This document shows, one piece after another, positions 44,631 through 63,956 of a stretch of DNA of 64,000 bases. Within the stretch, counting starts at the first letter, position 1. The number at the start of each line of letters is the position of its first letter. Source of the DNA: Candidatus Latescibacterota bacterium. Its GTDB lineage: Bacteria > Latescibacterota > UBA2968 > UBA8231. The notes below the pieces were generated by a model. It did not search any database and was not told where the DNA came from. It saw nothing but the letters and a program-made list of their open reading frames with translations. The stretch covers positions 4,816,079 through 4,880,078 of the forward strand of contig OZ242005.1 in NCBI GenBank assembly GCA_965204725.1. The letters are read 5' to 3'. The position numbers and the translations under genes were made by a program.

Positions 44631-44810
44631 ATGTGGCGCGATATCATCGTAGAAGAAATTCGCCGCAATCGTCAGGTGTATGCAGCAAAATTTCATCACG
44701 ACATCAAAGCGATCTGCCGCGCCGCCCGCGAGCAGCAAAGAAAAAGCGGGCACAAGATCGTTTCTTTGCCGCCGCGACCTGTCGCAACAGCTACGGAGGA
44801 TAGAGGATAA
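44631..44810 (+). CDS. 59-aa hypothetical protein (below the ORF-track cutoff)
   Basis: Hand translation gives MWRDIIVEEIRRNRQVYAAKFHHDIKAICRAAREQQRKSGHKIVSLPPRPVATATEDRG. GGAGGA lies upstream (ATGGAGGAATAACACCATG). It ends 4 nt before the likely start of the RM gene. Confidence 0.5.
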   Translation: MWRDIIVEEIRRNRQVYAAKFHHDIKAICRAAREQQRKSGHKIVSLPPRPVATATEDRG

Positions 44811-44814
44811 TTTT

Positions 44815-47800: not shown

Positions 47801-48006
47801 GCGGCTACCAAGTCTGCAACAAATGGTTGAAAGATCGCAAAGATCGCCGCCTCACCCTCGACGACATCCGCACCTACTGCCGGATGGTAACAGCCATCGG
47901 GCTGACGCTCGATATTCAGCAAGAACTTGACGTGGTATATGGCGGTGTGGAGAATAGCTGTGTGTCGGTTGGGGCCGAAACAATCACCGAAAGGGGCTTG
48001 ACATGA
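44815..48006 (+). CDS. Single-chain restriction-modification enzyme, MmeI-like (type IIL/IIG): PD-(D/E)XK nuclease + gamma-class N6-adenine methyltransferase + C-terminal specificity region
   Basis: Contains GNPDFRLW...VGYVEAKKP (a D-x13-ExK nuclease motif), LLDPAAGTMTF (SAM motif I) and ILGNPPYSG (motif IV NPPY). The C-terminal LHAPAYREKYAEFLRIDFPRIPF block is seen in type ISP/PglX/MmeI-like proteins. I moved the start to GTG 44815, because the track start at 44680 overlaps the 59-aa ORF in another frame. Confidence 0.65.
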   Translation: MNQRSIFSTYLNDLTAVVRQGDAREESFYPALADMLRETARATGRTHVHVTTLPKPTEGGNPDFRLWNGTDRIVGYVEAKKPTEERLDLVENSEQLKRYRSTFPNLILTNFLEFRLYRDGERVDAVSVGRPSVLNALGTTPPLENQAELAALLDRFLDFALPSMFTAESFAVELAKRTRLLRDVIGEQFEQERNAPKMLSGFFEAFQTYLIGSLTTDDFADLFAQTIAYGLFAARTRAGDGFNRRVAFDNIPHTIGVLRDLFRYISLDELPAPLAWCVDDLAEVLSVADAPGILDSYYREGKGGDPIVHFYETFLAQYDPDERERRGVYYTPEPVVGYIVRSLNGLLKTEFDKRDGLASDGVMLLDPAAGTMTFVARAAQQAVAEFEEKYGSGGRADFIRRHILENFYALELMMAPYAVGHLKMSFFLEELGHRLADDERVPFYLTNTLDMEELEESRLPGLSALAEESRLAGAVKKQTPILVILGNPPYSGHSSNTGDWITELINDYKQVDGEPLGERNLKWLQDDYVKFLRFAQWKVEQAGRGVVGMITNHSYLDNPTFRGMRQSLMQTFDDIYILDLHGNSLKKETSPDGSPDQNVFDIRQGVAIAFFVKRGEGRESEAVVQHAECYGMRESKYERLDAHDLGSTKWQQINPASPFYLFVPRDAALEAEYRRFLSIPEVFSISEVFPINSVGVVTARDRLTIHWSEQETWDTVRAFLEMDPELARQGYKLGDDTQEWKVTMAQKDLRDSGPKRENVIPLLYRPFDVRHTYYTGHSRGFICRPRSEVMRHMLAGGNLALCVGRQGQVIGAGEWNLVYCSQNIGDLNLFYRGGNVNFPLYLYPTADRDDLFAQHESSERQPNLSPKLVEMLEEAHGQAPSPEAIFYYTYSVLHAPAYREKYAEFLRIDFPRIPFTKDSALFAKLAELGERLVGLHLLTSPELDPPACRFDGEGDAVVARTKAQGFRYDADEQRMYVNKTQYFGPVPPAVYAYPIGGYQVCNKWLKDRKDRRLTLDDIRTYCRMVTAIGLTLDIQQELDVVYGGVENSCVSVGAETITERGLT

Positions 48007-51218: not shown

Positions 51219-52430
51219 ATGGTCGACCGCCCCAAAATCGCCGCTATCAGCACCATTTTCCACAAATACTCCCACACCCAGCACATCGTCGATCGCTTCT
51301 TGGAAGGCTACGGCTGGAACGGCCGCCACCACCGGCCGGCGATGGACTTGGTCTCGCTCTACGTCGATCAGGTCGACCCCGACCCGGAGGCCGACCGCCC
51401 CGACCTGAGCCGCGACCGCCAAGCGCGCTTTCCGCAGCTAACGATCTATCCGACCGTGGCCGACGCCCTGACGCTGGGCGGCTCAACCCTCGCCGTGGAT
51501 GGCGTCCTGCTCATCGGCGAGCACGGCCGCTACGGCCACAATGAAAAGGGCCAGCACCTCTACCCGCGCTACGAGCTGTTCAAACAAATCGCCTCGGTCT
51601 ATCGCACGACCGGCAAGAGCGCGCCCGTGTTCAACGACAAGCATCTTTCTTGGAACTGGGACTGGTGCCAAGCGATGTACGATGTTGCGCAAGAGCTCGA
51701 TTTCGCCTTTATGGCCGGTTCTTCGCTGCCCGTTACTTGGCGCACCCCGTCGCTCGACATGCCCCTCGGGGCCGAGGTTGAAGAAGCCGTCTGCGTCTGC
51801 TATGGCGGCGTTGATAGCTACGACTTCCACGGCTTGGAGACCGTACAGTGCATGGTCGAGCGCAGAAAGGGCGGCGAGACGGGCGTCAACCGGCTCCGGG
51901 CCTTTCGCGACGACCACTTCTGGCAGGCCCACGCCCAAGGGATGTGGTCGCCGGCGCTCTTTGCCGCCTGCCTGTGCCGCAGCCACACGCTCGCGCCAGC
52001 GAGGCCCGGGTTCAACAACCCCTTCCCCACCATCGACGAACTCAAGCACCTAGTCAAAAGCCCGGTCGCCTACCAGTACGAGCACGCCGATGGCCTCCGC
52101 TCGACCATGATCTTGATGAACGGACTCGTCGAAGATTTCAACTTCGCCGCTCGGCTCAATGGACGGGCCGAGCCGCTCTCGACGCAGATGTACTTGCCCA
52201 TGCCCCCGGCCCGCACCACGCTGGCCAACTTCTTCAGCCCGCTGGTCAACAACATTGAGCGGATGTTCCTGACCGGCCAAGCCTCCTATCCGGTTGAACG
52301 CACCCTGCTCACTTCGGGCTTGGTCATCGCCGGCGTCGATAGCCTCCACCAAGGCCAAGCCGCAGTCGAGACGCCCCATCTAAACATCGCCTACCAACCC
52401 ACCGCAGAATCTACCTTCTGGAGAACGTAG
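51219..52430 (+). CDS. Conserved hypothetical protein, tandem paralogue A
   Basis: 403 aa, clearly homologous along its full length to 52457..53638. Shared blocks include VSLYVDQ, IGEHG.Y..NEKGQ.LYPRYE.F, NDKHLS, AGSSLPVTWR and ERR.GGETG. Confidence 0.7.
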   Translation: MVDRPKIAAISTIFHKYSHTQHIVDRFLEGYGWNGRHHRPAMDLVSLYVDQVDPDPEADRPDLSRDRQARFPQLTIYPTVADALTLGGSTLAVDGVLLIGEHGRYGHNEKGQHLYPRYELFKQIASVYRTTGKSAPVFNDKHLSWNWDWCQAMYDVAQELDFAFMAGSSLPVTWRTPSLDMPLGAEVEEAVCVCYGGVDSYDFHGLETVQCMVERRKGGETGVNRLRAFRDDHFWQAHAQGMWSPALFAACLCRSHTLAPARPGFNNPFPTIDELKHLVKSPVAYQYEHADGLRSTMILMNGLVEDFNFAARLNGRAEPLSTQMYLPMPPARTTLANFFSPLVNNIERMFLTGQASYPVERTLLTSGLVIAGVDSLHQGQAAVETPHLNIAYQPTAESTFWRT

Positions 52431-52456
52431 CCTCTTTCCTTGGAGCCTTCCCACTC

Positions 52457-53638
52457 ATGGCCACCAAACGCATCGCCGTCATCGCCACCATCTATCGCTA
52501 TCTCTCGCACGCCCAGCACTTTGCCGACCGCTTCTTAGTCGGCTATCCCTACGGCGGTCGCTGGCAGCGCCCCGACTGCAAGATCGTCTCGCTCTACGTC
52601 GATCAGCAGCCCGAAGGCGACCAAAGCCAAGACCGGGCGCGCGAGTTCGGCTTTGCCGTGTACCCCACCATTGCCCAAGCCCTGCGCTGCGGCGGCGACG
52701 AACTCGCTTGCGACGCCGTCCTGATCATCGGCGAGCACGGCGAGTACCCCAACAACGAAAAGGGGCAAAAGCTCTACCCGCGCTACGAGTTTTTCAAAGA
52801 ATGCGTCCAAGTCTTTGAAGAAGACGGCCGCACCGCGCCCATCTACAACGACAAGCACCTCTCATACAGCTTCGACAAGGCACGCGAGATGGTCGCCGAT
52901 GGCCACCGGCTCGGCTTCCCAATTTTGGCCGGTTCCTCGCTGCCCGTAACTTGGCGTCTGCCCGATGTCGAGTTGCCTTTGGGCTGCCAGATCGAAGAGG
53001 CCCTAATGATCGGCTGCGGCGGCTCCGACCCGATGGACTACCACGCCCTAGAGGCCATGCAGTGCATGATCGAGCGCCGCTCCGGCGGCGAGACCGGGAT
53101 CCGAGCCGTTCAACTGATCGAAGGAGACGACGTGTGGAAAGCGGGCGAGGAGGGGCGTTATTCGTTGGAATTGCTCGAAGCCGCCCTCTCGCGCAGCGAC
53201 ACCCCGTGCGGCAAAACCGACGAGGACGGCCGCACCCAAGACTTGCTGGGCAACGGCGAGTTGCCGCGGCTCGTCAAGGAGCCAGCCGCGTACTTCATCG
53301 AGCACAACGACGGCCTCAAGACGACCCTGCTGATGCTCAACGGCGCCATCCGCGACTACTGCTTCGCCGGCAAGCTGGCGGGCGAAGACGCGCCCATCTC
53401 GACCCAGTTTTTCTTGCCGCCGACGCCCAACGTCACCTACTCGGCCTGTCTGGTCGCCAAGATATGGGAAATGATCGAGACCGGCCGCGCACCCTTTCCC
53501 GCCGAGCGCACCCTAATCGTCAGCGGCGCGCTCGAAAGCTGCCTGACCTCCAAGGTGGAGGGGCACAAGCGGCTCGAAACGCCTCATCTCAAGGTAGAGT
53601 ACCAAGCGCCTGCCGAGTCGCATCACGGCCGCTTTTAG
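52457..53638 (+). CDS. Conserved hypothetical protein, tandem paralogue B
   Basis: 393 aa; see paralogue A. Confidence 0.7.
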   Translation: MATKRIAVIATIYRYLSHAQHFADRFLVGYPYGGRWQRPDCKIVSLYVDQQPEGDQSQDRAREFGFAVYPTIAQALRCGGDELACDAVLIIGEHGEYPNNEKGQKLYPRYEFFKECVQVFEEDGRTAPIYNDKHLSYSFDKAREMVADGHRLGFPILAGSSLPVTWRLPDVELPLGCQIEEALMIGCGGSDPMDYHALEAMQCMIERRSGGETGIRAVQLIEGDDVWKAGEEGRYSLELLEAALSRSDTPCGKTDEDGRTQDLLGNGELPRLVKEPAAYFIEHNDGLKTTLLMLNGAIRDYCFAGKLAGEDAPISTQFFLPPTPNVTYSACLVAKIWEMIETGRAPFPAERTLIVSGALESCLTSKVEGHKRLETPHLKVEYQAPAESHHGRF

Positions 53639-53667: not shown

Positions 53668-54705
53668 ATGAAAGGAAGCATCATGCCTACCATCCCCACG
53701 CGCTCTTTGCGCACCGGCGTTGAGTTGAGCACCCTCGGCTTTGGCGGTGCCCCTTTGGGCGAGCTTTTCGATCCGGTCAGCGAAACCCAAGCCCAAGACA
53801 CCCTGCAAGCGGCTTGGGACGCCGGTATCCGCTACTACGACACCGCCCCGTTTTACGGCTATGGCAAAAGCGAGCACCGCCTCGGCCACTTTCTCCGCCA
53901 GCAGGAGCGCGGCGACTTCGTGCTCTCGACCAAGGTCGGCCGAGTGCTCACCGCCACCCGCAATCTCCATTCTTTCGAGCAGGGCTTCTGGATCGGCGGC
54001 CTGCCCTTTGACTTCCGCTTCGACTACGGGTACGATGGCATCATGCGCTCGTGGGAAGACAGCTTGCAGCGGCTGAGCCTCAACTCCATTGACCTGCTGT
54101 TGATCCACGACCTCGACAGCTTCTTCCACGACAGCGAGCAGCGCTTCTCCGCCCACCTCAACCGCCTGATCACCAGCGGCTGGCGCGCCCTCGACGAGCT
54201 GCGCTCCCACGGGCTGATCAAGGCCGTTGGTGCTGGCCTCAACCGCATGGGGGCCATGCCGCGCCTGCTCGACGGGGTGGACCTCGACTTCTGCATCGTC
54301 GCCATGCCCTATACGCTCTTGGACCAAGACTCTCTCGACGAGGAGTTTCCCCTCTGCGAGGAGCGCGACGTGCGCATCGTCATCGGCGCGGTTTTCGCTT
54401 CCGGCATCCTCGCCTCCGGCCCGGTCGAGGGTGCTCGCTACGCCTACGACACTGCGTCGCCCGAAATCCTCGCCAAGACTCGCCGCATCCAAGCCGTCTG
54501 CCAGCGGCACGATGTCCCCTTGCCGGCCGCGGCCATGCAGTTCCCGCTCGGGCACCCCCTCGTCGCGGCCATCATCCCCGGTGCCCTCGTCCCGGCGCAT
54601 GTCGAGACCAATGCCCAGTGGTTTAAGCACACCATACCAACCGATCTGTGGGCCGAGCTAAAGGCCGAGGGATTGTTGCGGGCAGATGCCCCGACGCCGA
54701 ACTAA
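53668..54705 (+). CDS. Aldo/keto reductase
   Basis: Contains LGFGGAPLG, IRYYDTAPFYGYGKSEHRLG and LLLIHD. Only the last roughly 345 codons of track ORF 52951..54705 are real. The start is either ATG 53668 or ATG 53683. Confidence 0.8.
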   Translation: MKGSIMPTIPTRSLRTGVELSTLGFGGAPLGELFDPVSETQAQDTLQAAWDAGIRYYDTAPFYGYGKSEHRLGHFLRQQERGDFVLSTKVGRVLTATRNLHSFEQGFWIGGLPFDFRFDYGYDGIMRSWEDSLQRLSLNSIDLLLIHDLDSFFHDSEQRFSAHLNRLITSGWRALDELRSHGLIKAVGAGLNRMGAMPRLLDGVDLDFCIVAMPYTLLDQDSLDEEFPLCEERDVRIVIGAVFASGILASGPVEGARYAYDTASPEILAKTRRIQAVCQRHDVPLPAAAMQFPLGHPLVAAIIPGALVPAHVETNAQWFKHTIPTDLWAELKAEGLLRADAPTPN

Positions 54706-54715
54706 GAGGTTGAGC

Positions 54716-57700
54716 ATGAACCATAAGCAGGTATTTGATCACATCCTCGGGCGGCACTACACGAACTTCGACGGGCTGGCCGGGATGCACGTGGAAGACA
54801 TCTACCAAGACCGCCGCGGCCTGCTCTGGATCGCCACGGCCGACGGCGGCGTGGGCCGGTTCGACGGAGCGAATTTCGACATCTTTAGCCTCTCGAGAGG
54901 GGTTCCCCATATCACGGTAATGACGATTGCTGAGGACCCAGACGGGCGAATGCTCTTCGGCACTCTCGGCGGCGGGCTAGCCGTATATGACGGGCAGGGG
55001 TTTCAGGTGCATACCACCGAGCACGGGCTGCCGTCCAATGAGATCATGAGCCTGCAACCCCAAGCCGATGGCTCAATGCGGATGCTGACCGGCGCGGGGA
55101 TAGGCCGGTTCGTCGATGGCCAGTGCGTAGAGTGCGTGACAGAAATTGCGGGGCAGCCGCTAGGCCCGGTGTACGACATGGCGACCGACGCGGCCGGTAC
55201 GACGTGGTTGGCGACGCGGGAGCGCGGGGTTCTCAGCCTAGAGGGCCAGCCCCTGAGTGGGGACTTAGGCACGGGAAGCGGCGCGATGCAGTGGCCGTGG
55301 AAATTCGCCCAAGGCCCCTCCGGCCCTCTGTGGATCGCCTTTCGCTACACCGGTCGCAAACCCATTATCGGCTGCTATGATCCAGCGAGCAACCAGCTCG
55401 AACTCGTCGAGGTGGATGACCCAGCCGAGGAAGCCGAGATCGTCTGGCACGGTACGCGGCACGTGCGCGTCGATGATAGAGGCTTGCTGTGGATGACCTG
55501 CCGGGGCGTCTTGGTGTACGACGGACGGGCTTGGCATCCATTCGCCACCGAGTTGCCGGATAGCCATTTTTCGGCGACGCGACTGACGTATGAAGACCGC
55601 GAGGGGAACATCTGGTTGGGGCTGTGGGGCGGCGGGCTGGTTTTTTGCGATCCGGTCAGCGTCCAGCTATACACCCAAGCCGATGGCCTGCCCGACAGCG
55701 AGGTCCAGTGTCTGAGCGAAGACCGCGAAGGTCGGCTGTGGATCGGTACGATGGGGGGCTTGGCCTGCCGCCAAGACGACCGGATTCGCCCGGTAGATCC
55801 AAGGCGGGAGGTCTCAACGCTGGTGATTGACCAACAGGGGCAAGTCTGGAGCACAGGACCTGAGGGAGACATATTCAAGGCGACGGGTGGAGAGGCCGAG
55901 GCGATTGAGGGGGCCGAGACGACCCTCACGGAAGGAATCGCGGGGCTGTGGGAAGACCAAGCAGGACGCCTAAACGTCTGCACTTCCGAGGGGCGATTGG
56001 GGCGGATCGAACAAGGTCGCTTTACGCCACTTGCGGAGCGGTTTCCCCGCGGTTGCACGGTCGTGTTACAGGATGGAGCAGGGACCCTCTGGGTCGGCCT
56101 CAGTAGGAAAGAGTCCGCGCTATGCTATTATGAGGATGGTCGTTTCCACACGCCGACGGTGGCCGGCGTGAAAGACATCGGGAGTGTGAGTGCTTTGTGC
56201 GAGCACCAAGGCGCACTCTGGATCGGGACGGAAAACTATGGCCTGTTCGCCTTGGACTACGCTTCCGAGGAGATCCGCCGGTTTACGGTGGATCAGGGGG
56301 GGCTGTCGGTCAATGGGATCTCGGCTCTGATGAGCGATCCGCAAGGCGATCTGTGGATTGGGACCAGCGGTGGGGGCGTCCTGAAGTACGACGGCCGGAC
56401 CTTCCATACCATTCGGCTGGGACAGGGCGCGTTGGAAAACATCGTCGAGGCCATTGTGCGCGACAGCCGGGGCCGGCTGTGGTTTGGGACGCGCAGGGGT
56501 CTCATTGCGTATCGGCCCGGGGAGACGCCGCCGCGCATCCTAATCCGCCAAGTCGTGGCCGGCCGAACTTGGGACGACCCCCAAGCCGTGTCCTGCCCAG
56601 ACAGCACCCCCGAGATTCAGTTTCACTTCCAAGGCATCAGTTTCAGGAGTGGGGCCGGGCAGATGCGCTACAGCCACCGGCTCGTCGGCCCCGGCCGGGC
56701 CGAAGAGTGGAGCGCGTTCACGCCCGCCAATAAGGCGACGTACCGAGACGTGCCGGCCGGCCAGTTCCACTTTGAGGTGCGGACCACCGATCGGGATGGC
56801 TTGCTATCGGACATCGCCCGCCTAGAGGTTCGAGTGACCCCCTCTCCCCAGCGGCACATAGAGCACATGCTGCGGGCCTCGCATCAGGGTTTTATCAGCC
56901 AAAGTCCGGCCATGGCCGAGGTTCTCGAACGGGTCGACTCAATGGCCGAGGCGGACCTGCCGGTGCTGGTGCTGGGCGAGACCGGGGTTGGCAAGGGGGT
57001 GTTGGCGCGGCTTATCCACGACCTTAGTCCGCGCCGAGCGAAACCCTTTATAGCGGTCAATTCCGGGGGCTTGTCCACCGGGGTGATACACAGCGAACTG
57101 TTTGGCCACGAAAAGGGGTCCTTTACCGACGCGCATGCCCAAAGAATCGGCTATTTTGAACGGGCTGATGGCGGCACCTTGTTCCTCGACGAGATAGGCG
57201 ATTTGTCCGTAGAGTCCCAACAGCTCTTGCTCCACATCTTAGAGGATAAGAACCTGATGCGCCTCGGCGGCGGAAAGCCGATCCCGATAGATGTGCGGAT
57301 TGTTGCTGCGACCAACAAGGACCTCGAAGAGGCCATTCAGGCGGGCGTGTTCCGGGATGATCTGCTCTATCGGCTGAGGACATTATCAGTATTAGTACCG
57401 CCGCTGCGGGAGCGTCGGGAGGATATCCCGCTCTTGGCGGCGTATTTTGCGAACCAGTGTGCCCAAACCCTAAAGCGGCCGGTGCCGACCTTAAGCGACG
57501 AAGTACTCGCGCACTTGCAGGAATATCCTTGGCCGGGGAATGTGCGCGAATTGGCGCATCTGATACAGCAGGCGGTGGTGCTGGGCAAAGGGGATGTCAT
57601 GCGGATAGAGGATGTACCGCTGATGGCGGCCCCACCTGTTGAACAAGGCTCCGACGAGGGCACTGACGATGACGCCAAAAAGTGGGGATTCTTCGACGAG

Positions 57701-57871
57701 GATGCTAGAAATGAAGCCGAAAAGCAGCGAATTCTGAAGGCTCTCCAAACCACGAACTGGCGGGTCTCTGGCCCGCGGGGGGCGGCTCAGTTGTTGGAGA
57801 TAAGCCCGGAGAAGCTGCGCTATCGCATGCGTAAGTACGGGTTGAAACGGCCCGGGAAGGCGTCGCAGTAA
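54716..57871 (+). CDS. Sigma-54-dependent transcriptional activator with N-terminal beta-propeller repeats + Y_Y_Y sensor region (no TM, no receiver, no kinase)
   Basis: About a dozen repeats of the form G.LWIGT..GGL..YDG (two-component-regulator propeller type). A Y_Y_Y-like block follows (MRYSHRLVGPGRAEEWSAF...GQFHFEVRT). The AAA+ core has GETGVGKG, ELFGHEKGSFTDA (a GAFTGA variant), LFLDEIG and PWPGNVREL. The C-terminal Fis-type HTH is RGAAQLLEISPEKLRYRMRKYGL. I moved the start to ATG 54716. Confidence 0.8.
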   Translation: MNHKQVFDHILGRHYTNFDGLAGMHVEDIYQDRRGLLWIATADGGVGRFDGANFDIFSLSRGVPHITVMTIAEDPDGRMLFGTLGGGLAVYDGQGFQVHTTEHGLPSNEIMSLQPQADGSMRMLTGAGIGRFVDGQCVECVTEIAGQPLGPVYDMATDAAGTTWLATRERGVLSLEGQPLSGDLGTGSGAMQWPWKFAQGPSGPLWIAFRYTGRKPIIGCYDPASNQLELVEVDDPAEEAEIVWHGTRHVRVDDRGLLWMTCRGVLVYDGRAWHPFATELPDSHFSATRLTYEDREGNIWLGLWGGGLVFCDPVSVQLYTQADGLPDSEVQCLSEDREGRLWIGTMGGLACRQDDRIRPVDPRREVSTLVIDQQGQVWSTGPEGDIFKATGGEAEAIEGAETTLTEGIAGLWEDQAGRLNVCTSEGRLGRIEQGRFTPLAERFPRGCTVVLQDGAGTLWVGLSRKESALCYYEDGRFHTPTVAGVKDIGSVSALCEHQGALWIGTENYGLFALDYASEEIRRFTVDQGGLSVNGISALMSDPQGDLWIGTSGGGVLKYDGRTFHTIRLGQGALENIVEAIVRDSRGRLWFGTRRGLIAYRPGETPPRILIRQVVAGRTWDDPQAVSCPDSTPEIQFHFQGISFRSGAGQMRYSHRLVGPGRAEEWSAFTPANKATYRDVPAGQFHFEVRTTDRDGLLSDIARLEVRVTPSPQRHIEHMLRASHQGFISQSPAMAEVLERVDSMAEADLPVLVLGETGVGKGVLARLIHDLSPRRAKPFIAVNSGGLSTGVIHSELFGHEKGSFTDAHAQRIGYFERADGGTLFLDEIGDLSVESQQLLLHILEDKNLMRLGGGKPIPIDVRIVAATNKDLEEAIQAGVFRDDLLYRLRTLSVLVPPLRERREDIPLLAAYFANQCAQTLKRPVPTLSDEVLAHLQEYPWPGNVRELAHLIQQAVVLGKGDVMRIEDVPLMAAPPVEQGSDEGTDDDAKKWGFFDEDARNEAEKQRILKALQTTNWRVSGPRGAAQLLEISPEKLRYRMRKYGLKRPGKASQ

Positions 57872-57878
57872 GGCTGGC

Positions 57879-57924
57879 TTCCCGCCCCGTGTCGGGGCAC
57901 GGGGGGACGGTCTGGCTCGGGAAG
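57879..57924 (+). repeat. Nested-hairpin element, copy 2 (8 nt after the activator stop)
   Basis: The outer stem pairs CTTCCCG with CGGGAAG. The inner hairpin is CCCCGTG-TCGGGG-CACGGGG at 57885-57904. It is the reverse-complement relative of 23591-23637. Confidence 0.8.
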
Positions 57925-57993
57925 GACGGAGACCGGCTCTACGGCTTGTTCAACACGCCCCAATTTTCAGATCGCTTCTTAGAGGACGCTGTA

Positions 57994-58062
57994 AAAAGTT
58001 GTGCAAAAGTTGTGCAAAATCTGTTCACTTGCACAAGTTTTGCACAAGTTTTGCACAAAAAA
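57994..58062. promoter_or_regulatory. Array of five phased 8-mer sites: TTGTGCAA x2 then its complement TTGCACAA x3 (candidate activator UAS)
   Basis: Sites at 57999-58006, 58010-58017, 58029-58036, 58040-58047 and 58051-58058. Spacing is 11 bp within each arm. Confidence 0.6.
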
Positions 58063-58140
58063 GTCGCAAATCAACTTGCGATGACGCCTCATGCTGGCCT
58101 CGTTGAGATTTTTTTTTGCTATCCAACGTCTTGTTTTTCA

Positions 58141-58170
58141 ATCCTTTAGGTATTCCTAAAGGATTTTTTT
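58141..58170 (+). terminator. Intrinsic-terminator-like hairpin (10-bp perfect stem, 4-nt loop, T run)
   Basis: Sequence is ATCCTTTAGG-TATT-CCTAAAGGAT followed by TTTTTT. An A/T-rich stretch with a T9 run lies at 58109-58117 just upstream. Confidence 0.6.
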
Positions 58171-58188
58171 GTGCCGGACCGGCATCTT

Positions 58189-58204
58189 TGGCACGAAATT
58201 TGCA
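58189..58204 (+). promoter_or_regulatory. Sigma-54 (-24/-12) promoter
   Basis: TGGCACGAAATTTGCA matches the TGGCACG-N4-TTGCW consensus exactly. The GG is at 58190-58191 and the GC at 58202-58203. It lies 46 nt upstream of ATG 58250. Confidence 0.75.
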
Positions 58205-58249
58205 ATAGTCTTTACAAGCGCATTTCATCTACCATGAGGCGTAACGGAT

Positions 58250-59395
58250 ATGGAAGCCCTGCTCAACGATTTTGGCCGCGTGTTTTTGCTGGAGTTGGTT
58301 ATGGCCTGCGCCATTACCATCTGCGGTTGCTATACAACCTATACCGATATTCACTTCCGCCATATCCCCCATTGGGCTAGTTGGGGACTGCTGGCCGTAG
58401 GTTTAATAGGCCAAGGTCTATTTTGGATTTGGGGTGCGGTCGAACTGGACCAAGCAGGCATCGTCTTGTTGGTCGGTTTTGTTGTTGGTTACGTACTCTA
58501 TATCTACGGATTTTGGGCACCCGGCGACGCCAAGTTGTTTTGGGCTTTTGTCTTGGTGCTGCCGCCGACGTTCTTCCCCTCCACTTCCCTCTCCTCCTTT
58601 GACGCGCCGATTTGGGCGCTCCTGCTCAACGCCTTAGTGCTCACCTGTTTTGTCTTGCTGGCGCTGTGGGCGGTTTTGCGTCGGGGGCGGTCGGCGGAAG
58701 TCGAGGGGGATTGGGGGCCATCGCAATGGCTGTATCTAGGCTTGGAGTTGGCCGGCCTGATAGGGCTCGTGCTGGGGTTTGGCTCCTTCCTGCTGGCCGA
58801 GACGATGACCTTTGTAGAGGTCGTGGTCGCCATCTTGGTGCTCTATCTGCTCGTTGACCACTTCGTCCCCCAGAGTTACCGGCTGACCTTGGCCCTGCCC
58901 GGTCTTATCCTCGGCGGCTACACGGCCCTGCAATCGGGAGAATGGCTGATCTATCTGGTGCTGTGGGTCCTCGCTTGGGGGGTGTTCTCCCTCTATAGCA
59001 TCATCCGGCATCTAGTCCCTCGGCACTTCGTACAGGCGATTCCTATTCAGGCGTTGCGCGCCGGCATGGTGCCGCAGGTAGCGATCTACGCGGCGGATAC
59101 CGGCGGAGCGGCGGAATACCGTTGTGGCGCAGAGGTTGGGCCGGGGCAAGATGTGCTGTGTTATCCTGGCCGGCCGTTGACCAAGGGGCAGGTGCGGACG
59201 TTGCACGAAAAATCGGCGGGCGGTGCTTTCGCGCCGTTTGGCCATGAGTTGGCAGTGGAACTGGCCGTCCCTTTCGCGCCGATAATCGCCGTCGCTGGGG
59301 TGCTGACCCTAGTCTTGGGCGGCAGTCTAATCAGACCCCTGATACAGTTGTTCTCTCCGTGGCTGCCGTCGCTTCAGCAGTTGTTGGTGGGGTAA
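58250..59395 (+). CDS. Peptidase A24 (prepilin/preflagellin peptidase)-like polytopic membrane protein
   Basis: Two Asp motifs in the expected context: TYTDIHFRHIP and FWAPGDAKLFW (GxGDxKL-like). Multiple TM helices. Confidence 0.65.
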   Translation: MEALLNDFGRVFLLELVMACAITICGCYTTYTDIHFRHIPHWASWGLLAVGLIGQGLFWIWGAVELDQAGIVLLVGFVVGYVLYIYGFWAPGDAKLFWAFVLVLPPTFFPSTSLSSFDAPIWALLLNALVLTCFVLLALWAVLRRGRSAEVEGDWGPSQWLYLGLELAGLIGLVLGFGSFLLAETMTFVEVVVAILVLYLLVDHFVPQSYRLTLALPGLILGGYTALQSGEWLIYLVLWVLAWGVFSLYSIIRHLVPRHFVQAIPIQALRAGMVPQVAIYAADTGGAAEYRCGAEVGPGQDVLCYPGRPLTKGQVRTLHEKSAGGAFAPFGHELAVELAVPFAPIIAVAGVLTLVLGGSLIRPLIQLFSPWLPSLQQLLVG

Positions 59396-59397
59396 TC

Positions 59398-60015
59398 ATG
59401 AACCGAGATAGAAAAGACCCTGTAACACTGGCCTTTGGCGTCCTGTTGGTCGCCTTGCTGCCAACCTTTTTCCTGTTGGTGAGCCACTACCCGTCGTTAG
59501 AGGAGCGCGTGCAACAGTTGAAGCCTAAGCCCTTGGTGCCCGCGCCTTCACTGGAGGATCTGTTGGCGCAAGTCAGCCAAGCCGTATCCGACAGTACGCT
59601 CCAACTCCAACAGGTATGGGCTGCCGAGCCGGAACCGACTTCTGGCCTAGTGGCCGACTACAAGGTCGTGCGCGGCGGCCTAGCGGTCTATCGGCTGGTT
59701 CTATTCCGCCACGACATCGCCTGTAGCGTGTGCCGGGACGTGTTGGCCGCCGCTCTGTACGATGGCGACTCACTGGTGCAGATCTTTCTGCTCGACGATT
59801 GGGAGGTGCGCGGCGAGCGGGTTGATACCGCACAGTTTTTGCGCCAATTCGCGGGTCGCCCGCTGGCAACCGAACTGGCTCTTGAGGCCAATGTCGATGG
59901 GATCAGCGGGGCCACGTTTTCAACCGGGGGCCTCGTCGAACAGCTCAACACGGCGGCGGCGTGGGTGCGGGCGCATCCGCTGGAGCCGCCGGCAAGCGAG
60001 GGAGAAAACCTGTGA
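59398..60015 (+). CDS. Membrane-anchored FMN-binding (FMN_bind) domain protein
   Basis: N-terminal TM helix (LAFGVLLVALLPTFFLLV). C-terminal FLRQFAGRPL...NVDGISGATFSTGG is the flavinylation-type SGAT motif. I moved the start to ATG 59398. Confidence 0.7.
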   Translation: MNRDRKDPVTLAFGVLLVALLPTFFLLVSHYPSLEERVQQLKPKPLVPAPSLEDLLAQVSQAVSDSTLQLQQVWAAEPEPTSGLVADYKVVRGGLAVYRLVLFRHDIACSVCRDVLAAALYDGDSLVQIFLLDDWEVRGERVDTAQFLRQFAGRPLATELALEANVDGISGATFSTGGLVEQLNTAAAWVRAHPLEPPASEGENL

Positions 60016-60551
60016 ACGCTCTCAGACCCAATCGCTGGGCTACGACCTTGATCGTGGCTACGGGCCTCCTGTTGGGAGCCTGTGTATTCCTAGCGGCCAA
60101 GATCGTCAATCCTCCGCCGATTGATCGGCTCGATGTGGCGTTTTGGGATTTGCTGGGTACGCAAGCGGCTATCCTCGAATTAGAGAGCCTGACGGGCACA
60201 GACAAGGTTTCCAACGCGCAGTTTGCGGGCGAGCCCTATCTGCTCATTTTCGCCGACCCGACTTGCAGTGCCTGCGAGGCCATTTATCCCCACTTGCTGC
60301 GCGCCTCGCAAGTGCAGGGCGTGAATGTCCTGTTCATTGCCTCGGGCGACCGGCAGGCGATGCAAGACAAAGTGGAGGAACACAGTTTTGCATTCCCGGT
60401 CGCCTTTGATTCCCTGTTGACGGCCAATAAGCCCTTTGAGGTGGGTGCTTTTCCCGCCTCTGTACTGGTGGATGCCGAAGGCAACATTGCCAAAGCCGCT
60501 ACCGGCGATCAGGGTGCTGTCGCCGTAATACGCTTGGCTGGTAGTTCCTGA
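60012..60551 (+). CDS. Thioredoxin-fold (TlpA/redoxin-like) protein, CSAC active site, membrane-anchored
   Basis: TM helix ATTLIVATGLLLGACVFLAA, and LLIFADPTCSACEAIYP. Its GTG start overlaps the upstream stop (GTGA at 60012-60015). Confidence 0.7.
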   Translation: MNALRPNRWATTLIVATGLLLGACVFLAAKIVNPPPIDRLDVAFWDLLGTQAAILELESLTGTDKVSNAQFAGEPYLLIFADPTCSACEAIYPHLLRASQVQGVNVLFIASGDRQAMQDKVEEHSFAFPVAFDSLLTANKPFEVGAFPASVLVDAEGNIAKAATGDQGAVAVIRLAGSS

Positions 60552-60566
60552 AAGGATGGATGCGCC

Positions 60567-61271
60567 ATGTACGTTGTAACTCTCTTGCGTCGTCCGGTGG
60601 TGTGGACGGTGGTGGCCAGCGTCGCGGTCGTGGTCTTTTTGGCCTTGCGTCCCTCTTCGTCGGCCCTCTCGCCGGTGGTGTGGACCGAGCCCTCGGCTAA
60701 TCCGCTGGCCGAGGTGCTGCGGCCGGGGGATACCGCGCCGGACTTCGCGCTGCCGGCGGTACAGGGCGGCACGGTCGCCTTGAGTGCGTTGCGGGGAAAG
60801 CCCGCTTTGCTGGCCTTTGTTACGGCGGAGTGTCCGTATTGTCAGAAGCTATACAAGCAACTCGAAGCCTTTGAACTGAATGCGGACCAACAACTCGTAT
60901 TCATCTGCCCAAGCGAGGAGGGTGCTCGGAAAATCAGCGAGACCTATTCCTTTACGTATCCGGTGTTGATCGACTCGGCTGGGGCGATTTCACAGGCGTA
61001 CAAAACCCCTGGGGTGCCTGCGGTGTATCGGGTCGGCCCCGAGGGGAAGATTGTGGATTTGGCGGTGGGATGGCCGACGGCTTGGACGTTTGTTCGGGGT
61101 TTTGGCCGCCTCCAGCTTAGCGAAGGCTCTGAAGGTTATTCGTTTAATGGCTCAATCATCATGCTGGCCCAGAAAGGAGGTGCATCCCGTGCTCGTAGGT
61201 TTGATGCTCGTCAGCAACCACAACGGTTTGCTGATCCTTTTTCCAATTACTCAAGGAGAATTGCGTTATGA
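60567..61271 (+). CDS. Thioredoxin-fold (TlpA/redoxin-like) protein, CPYC active site, membrane-anchored
   Basis: TM helix VVWTVVASVAVVVFLAL, then PGDTAPDFALP...ALLAFVTAECPYCQKL...GVPAVYRVGPEG. Confidence 0.7.
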   Translation: MYVVTLLRRPVVWTVVASVAVVVFLALRPSSSALSPVVWTEPSANPLAEVLRPGDTAPDFALPAVQGGTVALSALRGKPALLAFVTAECPYCQKLYKQLEAFELNADQQLVFICPSEEGARKISETYSFTYPVLIDSAGAISQAYKTPGVPAVYRVGPEGKIVDLAVGWPTAWTFVRGFGRLQLSEGSEGYSFNGSIIMLAQKGGASRARRFDARQQPQRFADPFSNYSRRIAL

Positions 61272-61609
61272 AATCTCTACTTTTGTTCTTGCAGGCGGTG
61301 CTGGTGCTGCCGCTGGTGGCTCCGCTGGTGGAGTTCGCCACGTCAACCAGCGGGCACGTTGAGCCGCGTGAGGGGTTGGCGCTGGGCTGGCTGGGCAGCG
61401 TGGTGGCGGGGCTGGCGGTGGTGTTCGGCACGGCCGACCAGACCCAGGCCGATTCCTGCTACGGAATCTCGGAGGGAAGCAAGGGATCGTACACAACGTC
61501 GGATCCATGCGAGTGGAGGGACCATAAACCCTTCAGGTATTGGGTGAATTATTATCGCCACTACGAAGGGGGACCGGGCTGTGTCTATCTGTATTCTGTA
61601 TGCGTATAG
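61268..61609 (+). CDS. Small secreted/membrane protein with a 4-Cys, Tyr/Trp-rich C-terminal module
   Basis: ATG overlaps the upstream stop (ATGA at 61268-61271). It has a signal-like N-terminus, a second hydrophobic segment (LALGWLGSVVAGLAVVFG), and then DSCYGISEGSKGSYTTSDPCEWRDHKPFRYWVNYYRHYEGGPGCVYLYSVCV. Confidence 0.55.
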   Translation: MKSLLLFLQAVLVLPLVAPLVEFATSTSGHVEPREGLALGWLGSVVAGLAVVFGTADQTQADSCYGISEGSKGSYTTSDPCEWRDHKPFRYWVNYYRHYEGGPGCVYLYSVCV

Positions 61610-61720
61610 CCCGGTCGCCCAGTAGCCCCGTCGCTACGGCTCCCGGCTGTATCTATCAGCGTTTTGCATGCGGTCAGGTGAGCTCCTGTGACGTTATACG
61701 GTAGTTGCCAAGACGACGCG

Positions 61721-61755
61721 CCCCTGTGGTACTTTCGGGCCAAGTACCACAGGGG
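61721..61755 (+). terminator. 14-bp perfect hairpin downstream of the small Cys-rich gene
   Basis: Sequence is CCCCTGTGGTACTT-TCGGGCC-AAGTACCACAGGGG. No T run follows, so its terminator function is inferred only from position. Confidence 0.5.
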
Positions 61756-61817
61756 TAGGCGTCCTTATGTCGCTCAGAACATCCTAAAACAAATCTATCA
61801 CGCTTTGGAGGTTCGTT

Positions 61818-63956
61818 ATGCGCGGTTTGCTCGTTGCGATTGGATTGGTGGTGGCTCCATTTAAGGTCTTGGCTTTAACATGGGATTTTGACGCGGGCAC
61901 GACTTGGGGATGGGCAGCCCAAGAGAGCGCCTTCGGCTCAGACCATGGTACGACCACGGTGTACAGCGAAGTCGCAGATGGCGTCTGGCGCATTGCGCCG
62001 GTGCCGCACGGGAAAAGACCAGCCATTCGCTTGCTCTCGCCGCTGATTGGGGAAGACTCTGACCTGTTCGACTGGGTCACCCTACGGCTACGCATCATCC
62101 ACGATCTCCCCACCGAGGGGGTCCTTGAAATGTCGTGGTCCAATGTCGAGTACAGACGCCGCAAGAAGGAAGAACCCAGCGTAGGGTTGGGATTTTTTGT
62201 AAGCCGTCCTCAAGTTTATTCCACCGAATGGGAAGACATCACCATAGATATACGGGCTTTGGAAGCGGCTCCAGCAGGAGAGATCGATTGGGAGGTCACT
62301 TGGGAGGACACTCTCTTCCACTTCTTCTTAGACCTAGACTTATTGCATCTACACGACATACAAGAATCCAGCTTAAGCCCGGCGGCTCGTCCGACCTTTG
62401 TCGAAGTCGATTGGATTCAACTGACGGGTGCTGAAGAGTTGCTGCTGGGGGAGTTGCAGCCTCGGGCGAGCATCGTGGAGGCCGGGTTGCCTGGGACGTT
62501 GTTTGCGGAACCGCGTTTTTCGGTGTTGGGTCGAAATATCGGTAACCCAGGATCGCATGGTACTTTGGGCGATGTGGATGGCGATGGGGATGCCGATCTG
62601 GTCGTGAAATGGGAGGAAATAATGGCGAGCGATGGCTGGTCCATAGCGACCAGCGATGGCTTGGGGAGCTTGGTCCCTACCCAAGAGGTCCTCCTCCCAC
62701 AGGAGGCTTATTCGATTCCGATGATTACGGGAGGCGATTTCGACGGGGATGGGCTTCTCGATCTGGCCTTTAGTACCGGTCGAACTATCGAATTGTGGCT
62801 CAACCGGGGCGAGGATGGATTTGAAACCATCCTACAGCTATCCGATAGCTATTTCATCGGTCTAGCCGATGGCGACGGCGATGGCGATGTGGACCTGTTG
62901 GCGGTAGAAGACCGCGACGACCTATGGTCTAACTTGACTATGTGGATCAACGATGGCGCGGGCGGGTTTGCCCACAGCGATCGGTTCGTCCTCGACACCG
63001 AAGAAGAGCTCGGTCGTTTCCTGCTGGCAGGGCAACCGGAGGGCGAGGCCGTGCGTGTGCTGTGGATCCGACCCTGCTGGAAGCCGCAGGGGCCGTGGCG
63101 GCTGACCCAGCCATGGGCGGCAAACGAGGAGCCACCGCTGTTTTTTGAGCTTGGGGAGGTCAACCCCTGCGACATGGACCTGCTGGCCGATCTGGATGGG
63201 GATGGAGCGGTAGAGTTAGTCGGAACGCCCGAGCGGAACCTGTTCCCGGGCTTTTCTCGGGGCAACACCCATCACGGTTTAGCCCTGTGGCGCGTGAACC
63301 CTTCGGGCGGAGTGGAACGCCACACCCTGCTCGGTCCGCAGGTGATCGTGCCGTATTCGTGGCCTAAAAGTGGGGTCATTGCCAGCGACCTGACCGGCGA
63401 TGGCCTTTTGGACTTGGCCGTAATCAATACCAACTTAGCGATGAATCCGGCCCTGATTGTCTTGGTTGGCCAGCGCGATGGCCTGCCCGTCGTCGAAGGG
63501 CACTACCCCCTGCCCACCATCGGCCGCAGCCTGCTCGCAGGCGACGTCAACGGCGATGGGGCGACCGATCTGGTCGTGCTGGGGCGGAGTCAGCGCGGCG
63601 ACGGCGGAGCCTTCGTCTTCCTCAACCAAGGCGTTCCCGCCACTGCCATCGCCGCCGAGACGACGACCATGCCTACGACCTTTGCCCTCGGTGCCAACTA
63701 TCCCAACCCGTTCAACCCGGCCACGACCATTCCCGTGTCGGTGGCGGTGGGTGCGGGCGAGGTCGATTTAACCATCTATAACGTCTTGGGGCAGCCGGTG
63801 CGCCGCGTGTGGGCGGGTTCGTTGGCGGCGGGCGAACACCGGCTGGCTTGGGATGGCCGGGACACGCAGGGGCAACCCGTTGCCGCTGGAGTCTATTTGT
63901 ATCGGTTGCAGGTGGGCGACCAGACGCGCATTCGCAAGATGGTCAAAATTGAGTAG
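61818..63956 (+). CDS. FG-GAP/VCBS-repeat protein with T9SS-type (Por/FlgD-Ig-like) C-terminal sorting domain
   Basis: Repeated DxDGDGxxDL calcium-binding-type loops (GDVDGDGDADLVV, GDFDGDGLLDLAF, DGDGDGDVDLLAV, DLDGDGAVELVG, DLTGDGLLDLAV, GDVNGDGATDLVV). The C-terminus is LGANYPNPFNPATTIPV...GVYLYRLQVGDQTRIRKMVKIE. Confidence 0.8.
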   Translation: MRGLLVAIGLVVAPFKVLALTWDFDAGTTWGWAAQESAFGSDHGTTTVYSEVADGVWRIAPVPHGKRPAIRLLSPLIGEDSDLFDWVTLRLRIIHDLPTEGVLEMSWSNVEYRRRKKEEPSVGLGFFVSRPQVYSTEWEDITIDIRALEAAPAGEIDWEVTWEDTLFHFFLDLDLLHLHDIQESSLSPAARPTFVEVDWIQLTGAEELLLGELQPRASIVEAGLPGTLFAEPRFSVLGRNIGNPGSHGTLGDVDGDGDADLVVKWEEIMASDGWSIATSDGLGSLVPTQEVLLPQEAYSIPMITGGDFDGDGLLDLAFSTGRTIELWLNRGEDGFETILQLSDSYFIGLADGDGDGDVDLLAVEDRDDLWSNLTMWINDGAGGFAHSDRFVLDTEEELGRFLLAGQPEGEAVRVLWIRPCWKPQGPWRLTQPWAANEEPPLFFELGEVNPCDMDLLADLDGDGAVELVGTPERNLFPGFSRGNTHHGLALWRVNPSGGVERHTLLGPQVIVPYSWPKSGVIASDLTGDGLLDLAVINTNLAMNPALIVLVGQRDGLPVVEGHYPLPTIGRSLLAGDVNGDGATDLVVLGRSQRGDGGAFVFLNQGVPATAIAAETTTMPTTFALGANYPNPFNPATTIPVSVAVGAGEVDLTIYNVLGQPVRRVWAGSLAAGEHRLAWDGRDTQGQPVAAGVYLYRLQVGDQTRIRKMVKIE

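Follow-up and report, generated by a model that had tools for sequence, protein, structure and literature searches.

Hybrid two-component systems (HTCS) of Bacteroides thetaiotaomicron, such as BT4663, BT3049 and BT4673, have a sensor built from two seven-bladed Reg_prop beta-propellers and a Y_Y_Y domain. In HTCS this sensor is periplasmic and is followed by a transmembrane (TM) helix, a histidine kinase, a receiver and an AraC-type helix-turn-helix (HTH), the signal being passed on by phosphorelay. Here we describe a gene coding for a 1051 amino acid protein with the same sensor, found in a 64,000-nucleotide stretch of a Candidatus Latescibacterota genome (GenBank assembly GCA_965204725.1, contig OZ242005.1), which is called the window throughout. 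In this protein, named below the activator, a linker of ~16 residues joins the Y_Y_Y domain to a sigma-54 AAA+ core; signal peptide, TM segment, kinase and receiver are all missing. Since these elements and the AraC domain are lacking, the activator is not an HTCS. It is probably functional, as a soluble bacterial enhancer-binding protein (bEBP) of the one-component type, and would drive the adjacent operon through its own enhancer and -24/-12 promoter, a reading to which we give a probability of roughly 0.8.

This organization follows a logic shared by XylR and DmpR (V4R sensor), NorR and NifA (GAF sensor), PrpR and TyrR-like regulators: a cytoplasmic N-terminal sensor, an AAA+ core, a Fis-type HTH, an enhancer and a -24/-12 promoter. 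The activator differs from the XylR/NorR/NifA class in its sensor, a double propeller plus Ig-like domain of ~710 residues. The best structural matches to its AAA+ part are the cores of NtrC1, DctD, ZraR and FlrC, which are also the source of the dimer-to-ring model used below (see the last section); these proteins are phosphorylation-controlled regulators with a receiver domain, whereas the activator has none. BguR, a one-component regulator for beta-glucan that spans the membrane in marine Bacteroidota (bioRxiv 10.64898/2026.01.10.698779), also has a propeller/Y_Y_Y module wired to a DNA-binding output without a phosphorelay. However, the sensor of BguR is periplasmic, its chain includes a signal peptide and a TM segment, its output is a GerE HTH and it is sigma-54-independent. 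In the activator no TM segment precedes the output, and it is not a regulator of the BguR type. The two changes found joined in the sigma-54 contact loop of the activator (GSFTDA instead of GAFTGA) occur singly in FlgR of Campylobacter/Helicobacter (G to D at position 5) and in LevR of Bacillus (A to S at position 2), whose sensor domains are unrelated to the one described here.

Domain organization of the activator

The open reading frame (ORF) of the activator ends at 57871 and opens at 54686 or 54716. The ATG at 54716 has a Shine-Dalgarno sequence (AAGAGG) placed 6 nt upstream. An in-frame TAA (54659-54661) is separated by only 8 codons from the alternative ATG at 54686, which makes a longer N-terminus impossible. 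A previous reading of the window, made from the sequence only, had described a propeller/Y_Y_Y sensor joined directly to a sigma-54 core and a Fis-type HTH, and this arrangement was borne out by Pfam mapping and by the shortness of the linker (domain boundaries are given in Table 1). Reg_prop matched the product with 131.8 bits, Sigma54_activat (PF00158) matched residues 727-891 with 205.9 bits (cut-off 20.2), AAA_lid_14 scored 83.6 bits and HTH_8 29 bits (cut-off 22). The Y_Y_Y match at residues 646-707 has 23.2 bits, slightly below the cut-off of 26.6, and the same stretch reached 27.7 bits in a six-frame search of the genome. The number of propeller repeats had been put at about a dozen; the repeats are there, but the blade motif D..G..W[IV][GA]T..G is found 14 times, which corresponds to two seven-bladed propellers. 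No Pfam match to a HisKA/HATPase_c kinase, a receiver or an AraC-type HTH was obtained on the activator even at E 0.1. Partial NCBIfam matches (NifA, NtrC, RtcR, NorR and others) extend over residues ~680-1045 and all remain below the equivalog cut-offs, so that the activator is a bEBP outside any named subfamily.

Along the entire chain, the Kyte-Doolittle mean over 19 residues peaks at 1.18, in the Walker A strand. This value leaves the activator without a TM segment and without the h-region of a signal peptide, in agreement with the earlier description of a chain devoid of hydrophobic segments. A search for a TM segment or for an upstream in-frame extension with a signal peptide, either of which would have spoken against a cytoplasmic protein, found neither. 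The linker, which occupies the position where HTCS carry their TM helix, is hydrophilic and is the most variable segment of the family (entropy 1.68 in a 119-sequence family alignment). In the same alignment the mean column entropy of blades 9-11 is 1.34-1.55 bits compared to 0.5-1.0 bits in the other blades, and it is probably in blades 9-11 that the specificity region of the sensor is to be sought.

The relation to the HTCS sensors was found both in sequence and in fold. In phmmer searches the sensor matched the periplasmic domains of BT3049 (3V9F; E 1e-46), BT4663 (4A2L/4A2M; E 3e-39) and BT4673 (3OTT/3VA6), with residues 568-709 of the activator aligned to residues 623-776 of 3V9F. The AlphaFold2 (AF2) model, computed from a 27-sequence alignment, has a mean predicted local distance difference test score (pLDDT) of 73. 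Its propellers are all-beta, strands are found at 607-708, and most of the propellers and of the Y_Y_Y domain have pLDDT values of 80-90. Values drop below 50 in the linkers and in the L1 loop, the linker at 711-726 being modelled as two short helices. Foldseek comparison of this model to the PDB ranked BT4663 (E 1e-40), BT3049 and BT4673 first (E 1e-40 to 1e-34 over ~780 columns), PorZ coming after them. Residues ~727-975 were matched to ZraR (1OJL), NtrC1 (1NY5/1NY6/4LZZ) and FlrC (4QHT) with 38-45% identity.

In the AAA+ core, Walker A (GETGVGKG, 754-761), the DE pair of Walker B (825-826), the TN pair at 866-867 and the arginines R880, R886 and R944 are all invariant across the 27-sequence alignment and are kept in the activator. 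Judged by these residues, the catalytic set of Walker A/B, sensor I/II and arginine fingers is complete. Within the L1 loop, the same alignment shows variation at positions 802 and 805 and none at G801, F803, T804 and A806. The loop reads GSFTDA (context GHEKGSFTDA), as had been noted from the sequence, with the reservation that it might prove incompatible with sigma-54 activation. A word-indexed search yielded more than 3800 relatives, and loops were counted in the best 120 of them, nearly all of which are full length with 56-98% identity. The common types are GAFTGA (67), GAFTSA (43) and GAFTNA (5), and the rarer ones GAFTDA (2), GSFTGA (2) and GSFTSA (1); the F and the T never change. The loop is GAFTSA in the ortholog clade and GAFTDA in a twin with 98% identity (L104). 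Changes are thus tolerated in the family at position 5 and, more rarely, at position 2. Among validated activators LevR carries the A2S change and FlgR the G5D change (Francke et al., PMC3162934), and bEBPs of Desulfovibrio vulgaris show GAFTDA, GAYTDA and GSFTGA loops, several of them with assigned regulons (PMC4641369). As each of the two changes is known from a validated activator, the GSFTDA loop is no real oddity and no warning sign. With F803 and T804 kept, the loop can be counted as GAFTGA-type.

A partner for this loop is available. The genome (5.43 Mb in 2 contigs) has one intact rpoN (C1:2530248), coding for 489 amino acids in which region I and the RpoN box are both normal, and encodes ~15 bEBPs.

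Enhancer, promoter and recurrence of the downstream cassette

The interval between the activator stop codon and the ATG at 58250 holds an enhancer (upstream activating sequence, UAS), a hairpin and a promoter, in this order. The enhancer starts 128 bp past the stop codon and its centre is ~165 bp 5' of the -24 element. It is formed by two exact and one degenerate direct copies of TTGTGCAA, followed by three inverted TTGCACAA copies, with an 11-bp spacing within each set. At the sequence level the C-terminal HTH of the activator matches these phased TTGTGCAA/TTGCACAA sites (see below). The hairpin has a folding energy of -18.4 kcal/mol (z -5.3) and a terminator-like score, and it is kept in nearly all the cassettes examined. 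It is probably a terminator of read-through transcription and/or a bend site; three HU/IHF-family proteins are encoded in the genome, which makes a protein-assisted bend between enhancer and promoter possible. An Rfam search of 57800-58300 found no known RNA family, the only matches being sub-threshold microRNA hairpins on the palindrome. The promoter TGGCACGAAATTTGCA is the only zero-mismatch -24/-12 match (TGGCAC-N5-TTGCA) within the window and lies 46 nt 5' of the ATG. Genome-wide there are 21 perfect sites compared to ~5 expected from our own estimate based on composition. No sigma-70-like promoter was found between the activator stop codon and the ATG at 58250. The likely target operon codes, in order, for an A24-peptidase-like membrane protein, a 218-aa protein, two AhpC/TSA-thioredoxin-like proteins and a secreted FG-GAP/FlgD_ig protein, and its genes are intact.

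At the sequence level the activator has everything by which a bEBP is recognized: the AAA+ domain, its catalytic set, the loop, an HTH with an enhancer, and rpoN with a promoter. The earlier view of a one-component, apparently cytoplasmic version of the propeller sensor is supported by the soluble sequence, the complete AAA+ set, rpoN and the downstream enhancer and promoter.

The cassette is conserved. In the orthologous loci of L002 and L003 the order EamA gene, two unknown genes, aldo-keto reductase (AKR) gene and activator gene is retained, together with the enhancer repeats, the hairpin and the promoter. The operon that follows has in L003 the same order as in the window. In L002 the A24-to-thioredoxin genes are deleted, leaving the promoter directly 5' of the FG-GAP/FlgD_ig gene. 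Twenty members of the family were taken from related genomes, and 18 of them have a hairpin and, on the same strand and 190-350 bp past the stop codon, a TGGCAC-N5-xTGC element. The cassette also recurs within the genome of the window: a second enhancer-hairpin-promoter copy with 89% identity lies at C1:4887357-4887581, 5' of a 711-aa FG-GAP paralog. At this site, ~7.5 kb past the 3' end of the window, the A24-like gene is represented before the paralog by its opening codons (MEALLND...). Taken with the same deletion pattern in L002, this stub suggests that cassettes spread while keeping the beginning of their first gene. A related unit with TGTTCAAAA repeats is found at C1:1005215-1005417.

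A second propeller activator is encoded in the same genome (C1:2185193-2187565; 1065-aa open frame; loop GSFTGA). It is followed by its own array of three direct and three inverted ATCGTATAAA sites, by the same hairpin and by a perfect promoter. The ATCGTATAAA array recurs at C1:2247022 and C1:2170712, making three promoters in all, and these cassettes are mostly found 5' of genes for secreted FG-GAP paralogs that share the N-terminus 'AIRWEFDDGTTQGW'. Other enhancers of the family have four or five direct sites and one inverted site, again phased by 11 bp.

The repeats of the different cassettes were read by eye and by counting core motifs. A screen for exact 8-mers (at least 2 forward and at least 2 reverse) detected no enhancer repeats, because the repeats are imperfect. 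Activators with a helix LRYRM[RQ]K are paired with [CT]GT[TG][CG]AA repeats in 11 of 11 cassettes, and those with LRSRMR[VAY] with CGTA-type repeats in 8 of 8 (clear CGTAT in 7 and weaker CGTA sites in L097). The 19 cassettes are related by descent and do not count as independent cases; the pairing may go back to some 3-5 changes. The correspondence of helix and repeat is what direct recognition would predict.

Three more perfect sigma-54 promoters (TGGCACGATAATTGCA) were observed on the + strand at C1:2123485, 2128331 and 2137698. They share a distinct upstream motif, GACGCATTTGTGCGAT...GCGCAC, and the TGGCACGATAATTGCA/GACGCATTTGTGCGAT sites are probably the regulon of another bEBP.

Distribution of the propeller activator family

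The fusion of a propeller/Y_Y_Y sensor to a sigma-54 core is no one-off: judged from the genomes searched, it is the mark of a large, lineage-expanded family. The few homologues that bear a name are labelled 'sigma 54-interacting transcriptional regulator' and assigned to Gemmatimonadota or Latescibacterota. These assignments disagree with one another, and Latescibacterota is the more likely, given that genomes labelled Gemmatimonadota lack the junction in the panel of other phyla (see below). All close homologues begin at the same conserved first blade. Residues 520-800, which span the joint between Y_Y_Y and AAA+, were used as a query for the junction. The phylum of the window is poorly known. 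Of 168 of its genomes, 91 (more than half) gave an end-to-end match, and 26 of 49 genera were represented; some of these genomes have at least 13-14 copies. The junction was not found in 50 genomes of other phyla (six of them labelled Gemmatimonadota), in which the query matched by its AAA+ end only. This panel was taken from genomes with ordinary bEBPs recovered by the generic pattern WPGNVREL, which matched 80 such proteins that align to residues ~700-1045 of the activator only. In the genome of the window itself, Y_Y_Y is restricted to the two propeller activators. A tandem of two propeller activators was observed at L101 (G142:C1:2732970-2737270), the second directly after the first and with no cassette between them, an instance of local duplication in the family.

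Both soluble and membrane-spanning forms exist. Among the top 150 matches in a library of representatives at 50% identity, 55 clusters are propeller-AAA+ fusions without any hydrophobic segment, and ~16-23 combine an N-terminal hydrophobic segment with a TM segment before the AAA+ domain. In a FastTree phylogeny of the AAA+ domain only, the activator of the window is placed inside an all-soluble set of 36 clusters (support 97), with the membrane forms on the other side.

A full-text search of the literature found no publication on a propeller/Y_Y_Y sensor fused directly to a sigma-54 core. Propeller sensors for bEBPs are absent from the bEBP reviews and surveys searched, and the sigma-54 survey of Francke et al. 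has no mention of propellers (PMC3162934). The soluble propeller/Y_Y_Y bEBPs are thus a family common in its phylum for which we found no published description.

Proposed mode of action, alternatives and neighbouring genes

Activators of the NtrC1/DctD/XylR type are under negative control. By analogy with this control, and with the behaviour of the BT4663 sensor dimer, the unliganded sensor of the activator would keep the AAA+ domains in a non-ring state, and a signal would free the formation of the hexamer. For BT4663 a ligand-induced change within the dimer is reported in work that cites it (PMC8534201, PMC11253607). The cytoplasmic double propeller and Y_Y_Y domain would bind an intracellular ligand or partner, with specificity probably lying in blades 9-11. 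The ring would touch sigma-54 via its GSFTDA loop and open the downstream promoter at the expense of ATP, switching on the A24-like/thioredoxin/FG-GAP operon. The near-identical cassette at C1:4887557 would probably be co-activated, and the related cassette at C1:1005230 less surely so. The hairpin with its T-run most likely blocks read-through from the activator gene, so that expression of the operon would hang on activation alone.

The signal received by the propeller need not be a small ligand. Beta-propellers are common protein-interaction scaffolds, and the sensor could be a docking platform for a partner protein or peptide, for instance an anti-activator or a product or precursor encoded by the operon, as in the PspA-PspF and NifL-NifA pairs. 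The variability of blades 9-11 and the fast evolution of the target genes (A24-like 0.24, FG-GAP 0.35; Table 1) could then mean co-evolution of regulator and partner. However, the nearest solved relatives of the sensor are glycan sensors (BT4663 and related proteins), and no conserved small partner gene adjoins the activator in the loci examined. We consider docking of a partner rather unlikely.

Several observations count against a functional bEBP and bear on a different possibility, namely that the activator is decaying or has been re-purposed, does not engage sigma-54 and acts as a DNA-binding repressor or as a sigma-70-type regulator, like TyrR, DhaR and Rhodobacter NtrC. The ratio of non-synonymous to synonymous substitution rates (dN/dS) of the whole gene is 0.37 relative to L003 and ranges over 0.37-0.49 across L003 and L002, which is fast for a bEBP; in metabolic genes of the neighbourhood the values are ~0.1-0.16. 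The AAA+ domain, with 0.53 relative to L003 and ~0.9 relative to L002, evolves at 0.5-0.9. The activator and its twin depart from near-invariant columns of the family at 18 positions of the sensor and at 7-8 of the AAA+ domain, compared to family means of 5.6 and 1.5. The eight altered AAA+ columns of the window protein include C783S and E792H, shared with the twin, and A802S, found in the window only; these three are adjacent to or inside the L1 loop. In the ortholog clade the loop itself has drifted stepwise, from GAFTGA to GAFTSA, GAFTDA and GSFTDA, and the exact GSFTDA was not seen among the best 120 of the more than 3800 relatives. Two further points touch the control step: derepression is proposed by analogy only, and the AF2 model (predicted template modelling score 0.49) gives the interdomain geometry no confidence.

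Against loss of function, F803 and T804, whose loss abolishes activity, and all ATPase residues are retained, and G5D and A2S are each known from validated activators (PMC3162934). The codon differences from the twin, 32 synonymous and 19 non-synonymous (dN/dS ~0.2 as a rough estimate), reveal recent purifying selection. The sigma-54 site is perfect, the enhancer is intact and so are the operon genes. On this balance decay or re-purposing is highly improbable. The gene was also considered as a pseudogene, which was rejected because it has no stops and no frameshifts and because of the recent dN/dS of ~0.2. The activator appears to be fast-evolving yet selected, changing together with a fast-evolving target operon. 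The existence of membrane-spanning propeller/Y_Y_Y sigma-54 activators (~16-23 of the top 150 clusters) could suggest that the sensor is truly extracytoplasmic and that its signal peptide or TM segment was missed through a wrong start or an assembly error, but the in-frame stop 8 codons 5' of the first ATG, the hydropathy maximum of 1.18, the first-blade start shared by close homologues, the contiguity of the junction in 91 genomes and the position within the all-soluble tree set (support 97) make the chance of this negligible.

If the activator is a functional soluble bEBP, a fold known only from periplasmic or extracellular glycan sensors would also be placed inside the cell and linked without a relay to a sigma-54 motor. 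The range of sensors known from bEBPs is extended in this way, and the question arises what cytoplasmic signal a propeller senses. As every member of the family brings along an enhancer, an insulating hairpin and a promoter, regulon prediction in these uncultured bacteria becomes unusually tractable. A wider proposal, which we regard as possible but doubtful, is that the family is a natural toolkit: its sigma-54 switches would be self-contained and orthogonal to one another, every paralog having an intracellular signal of its own (read by blades 9-11 of an HTCS-type propeller transferred to the cytoplasm), an HTH code and an array phased by 11 bp. The match between helix and repeat suggests a small recognition code, which, if true, would provide orthogonal sigma-54 switches for engineering. 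In such a toolkit LRYRM.K would stand for GT[TG][CG]AA and LRSRMRV for GTATAA, with roughly one HTH per hexamer subunit on one face of the DNA, unlike the paired palindromes of the NtrC type. If the code is true, the Y1036S/K1040V change in the LRYRMRK helix would shift the preference from TTGTGCAA to TCGTATAA arrays.

Table 1. Features of the activator locus (positions in the window; dN/dS values for flanking and target genes are relative to L003).
Feature	Position	Strand	Basis or remark
Activator gene, 1051-aa product	54716..57871 (stop codon included)	+	ORF list, start codon, Pfam
Two seven-bladed Reg_prop beta-propellers, residues 1-604	54716..56527	+	Reg_prop, blade motifs, AF2, Foldseek
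Blades 9-11, residues 363-484, most variable sensor part	55802..56167	+	Column entropy
Y_Y_Y / Ig-like beta-sandwich, residues 605-710	56528..56845	+	Pfam, phmmer, AF2
Linker, residues 711-726, where HTCS carry TM helix	56846..56893	+	Hydropathy, AF2, entropy
Sigma-54 AAA+ core plus lid, residues 727-971	56894..57628	+	Sigma54_activat, AAA_lid_14, fold matches
L1 loop GSFTDA, residues 801-806, sigma-54 contact motif	57116..57133	+	Sequence
Fis-type HTH (HTH_8), residues 1000-1041, helix SPEKLRYRMRKYG	57713..57838	+	HTH_8 match
Dispersed repeat, directly 3' of activator stop codon	57872..57985		More than 100 partial or full genome copies
Putative enhancer (UAS)	57999..58060	+	Sequence, pattern matches; conserved in L002, L003
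AT-rich hairpin, 11-bp stem, 4-nt loop, then T7	58140..58172	+	RNA fold, terminator score
Predicted sigma-54 promoter TGGCACGAAATTTGCA	58189..58204	+	Perfect -24/-12 consensus match, TGGCAC-N5-TTGCA
Likely target operon	58250..63956	+	Pfam; order shared with L003
AKR flanking gene			dN/dS 0.09
Two unknown 400-aa flanking genes			dN/dS 0.10-0.16
A24-like gene			dN/dS 0.24
FG-GAP gene			dN/dS 0.35

The dispersed repeat that follows the activator stop codon opens with a GC-rich hairpin (CCGCCCCGTGTCGGGGCACGGGG); it is intergenic and resembles repetitive extragenic palindromes or miniature inverted-repeat transposable elements (REP/MITE-like). An 86-aa ORF at 57889-58149 was rejected as a gene: it has no Pfam match, and its sequence consists of dispersed repeat and enhancer. 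The 218-aa protein of the operon (59359-60015) has an N-terminal TM segment and no Pfam match at E 0.001. Its motif DGISGATFS is one that we take to resemble the flavinylation motif of extracytoplasmic domains binding flavin mononucleotide (FMN).

Upstream of the activator, 51219-53638 codes for two tandem paralogs of 403 and 393 aa without a Pfam family. Purifying selection on both is strong (Table 1), and their syntenic neighbours are an EamA transporter, a UxuA-like gene and the aldo-keto reductase. Elsewhere in the genome, C1:3307845-3309380 (- strand) codes for a secreted protein of 731 aa, which has a signal peptide, a Reg_prop double propeller and a FlgD_ig C-terminal tail like those of type IX secretion; this PorZ-like layout hints at type IX secretion in the organism. 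Within the window, 44680-48006 codes for a 1108-aa single-chain protein resembling restriction-modification enzymes, with an N6_Mtase domain and a Type_ISP_C specificity domain (296.9 bits).

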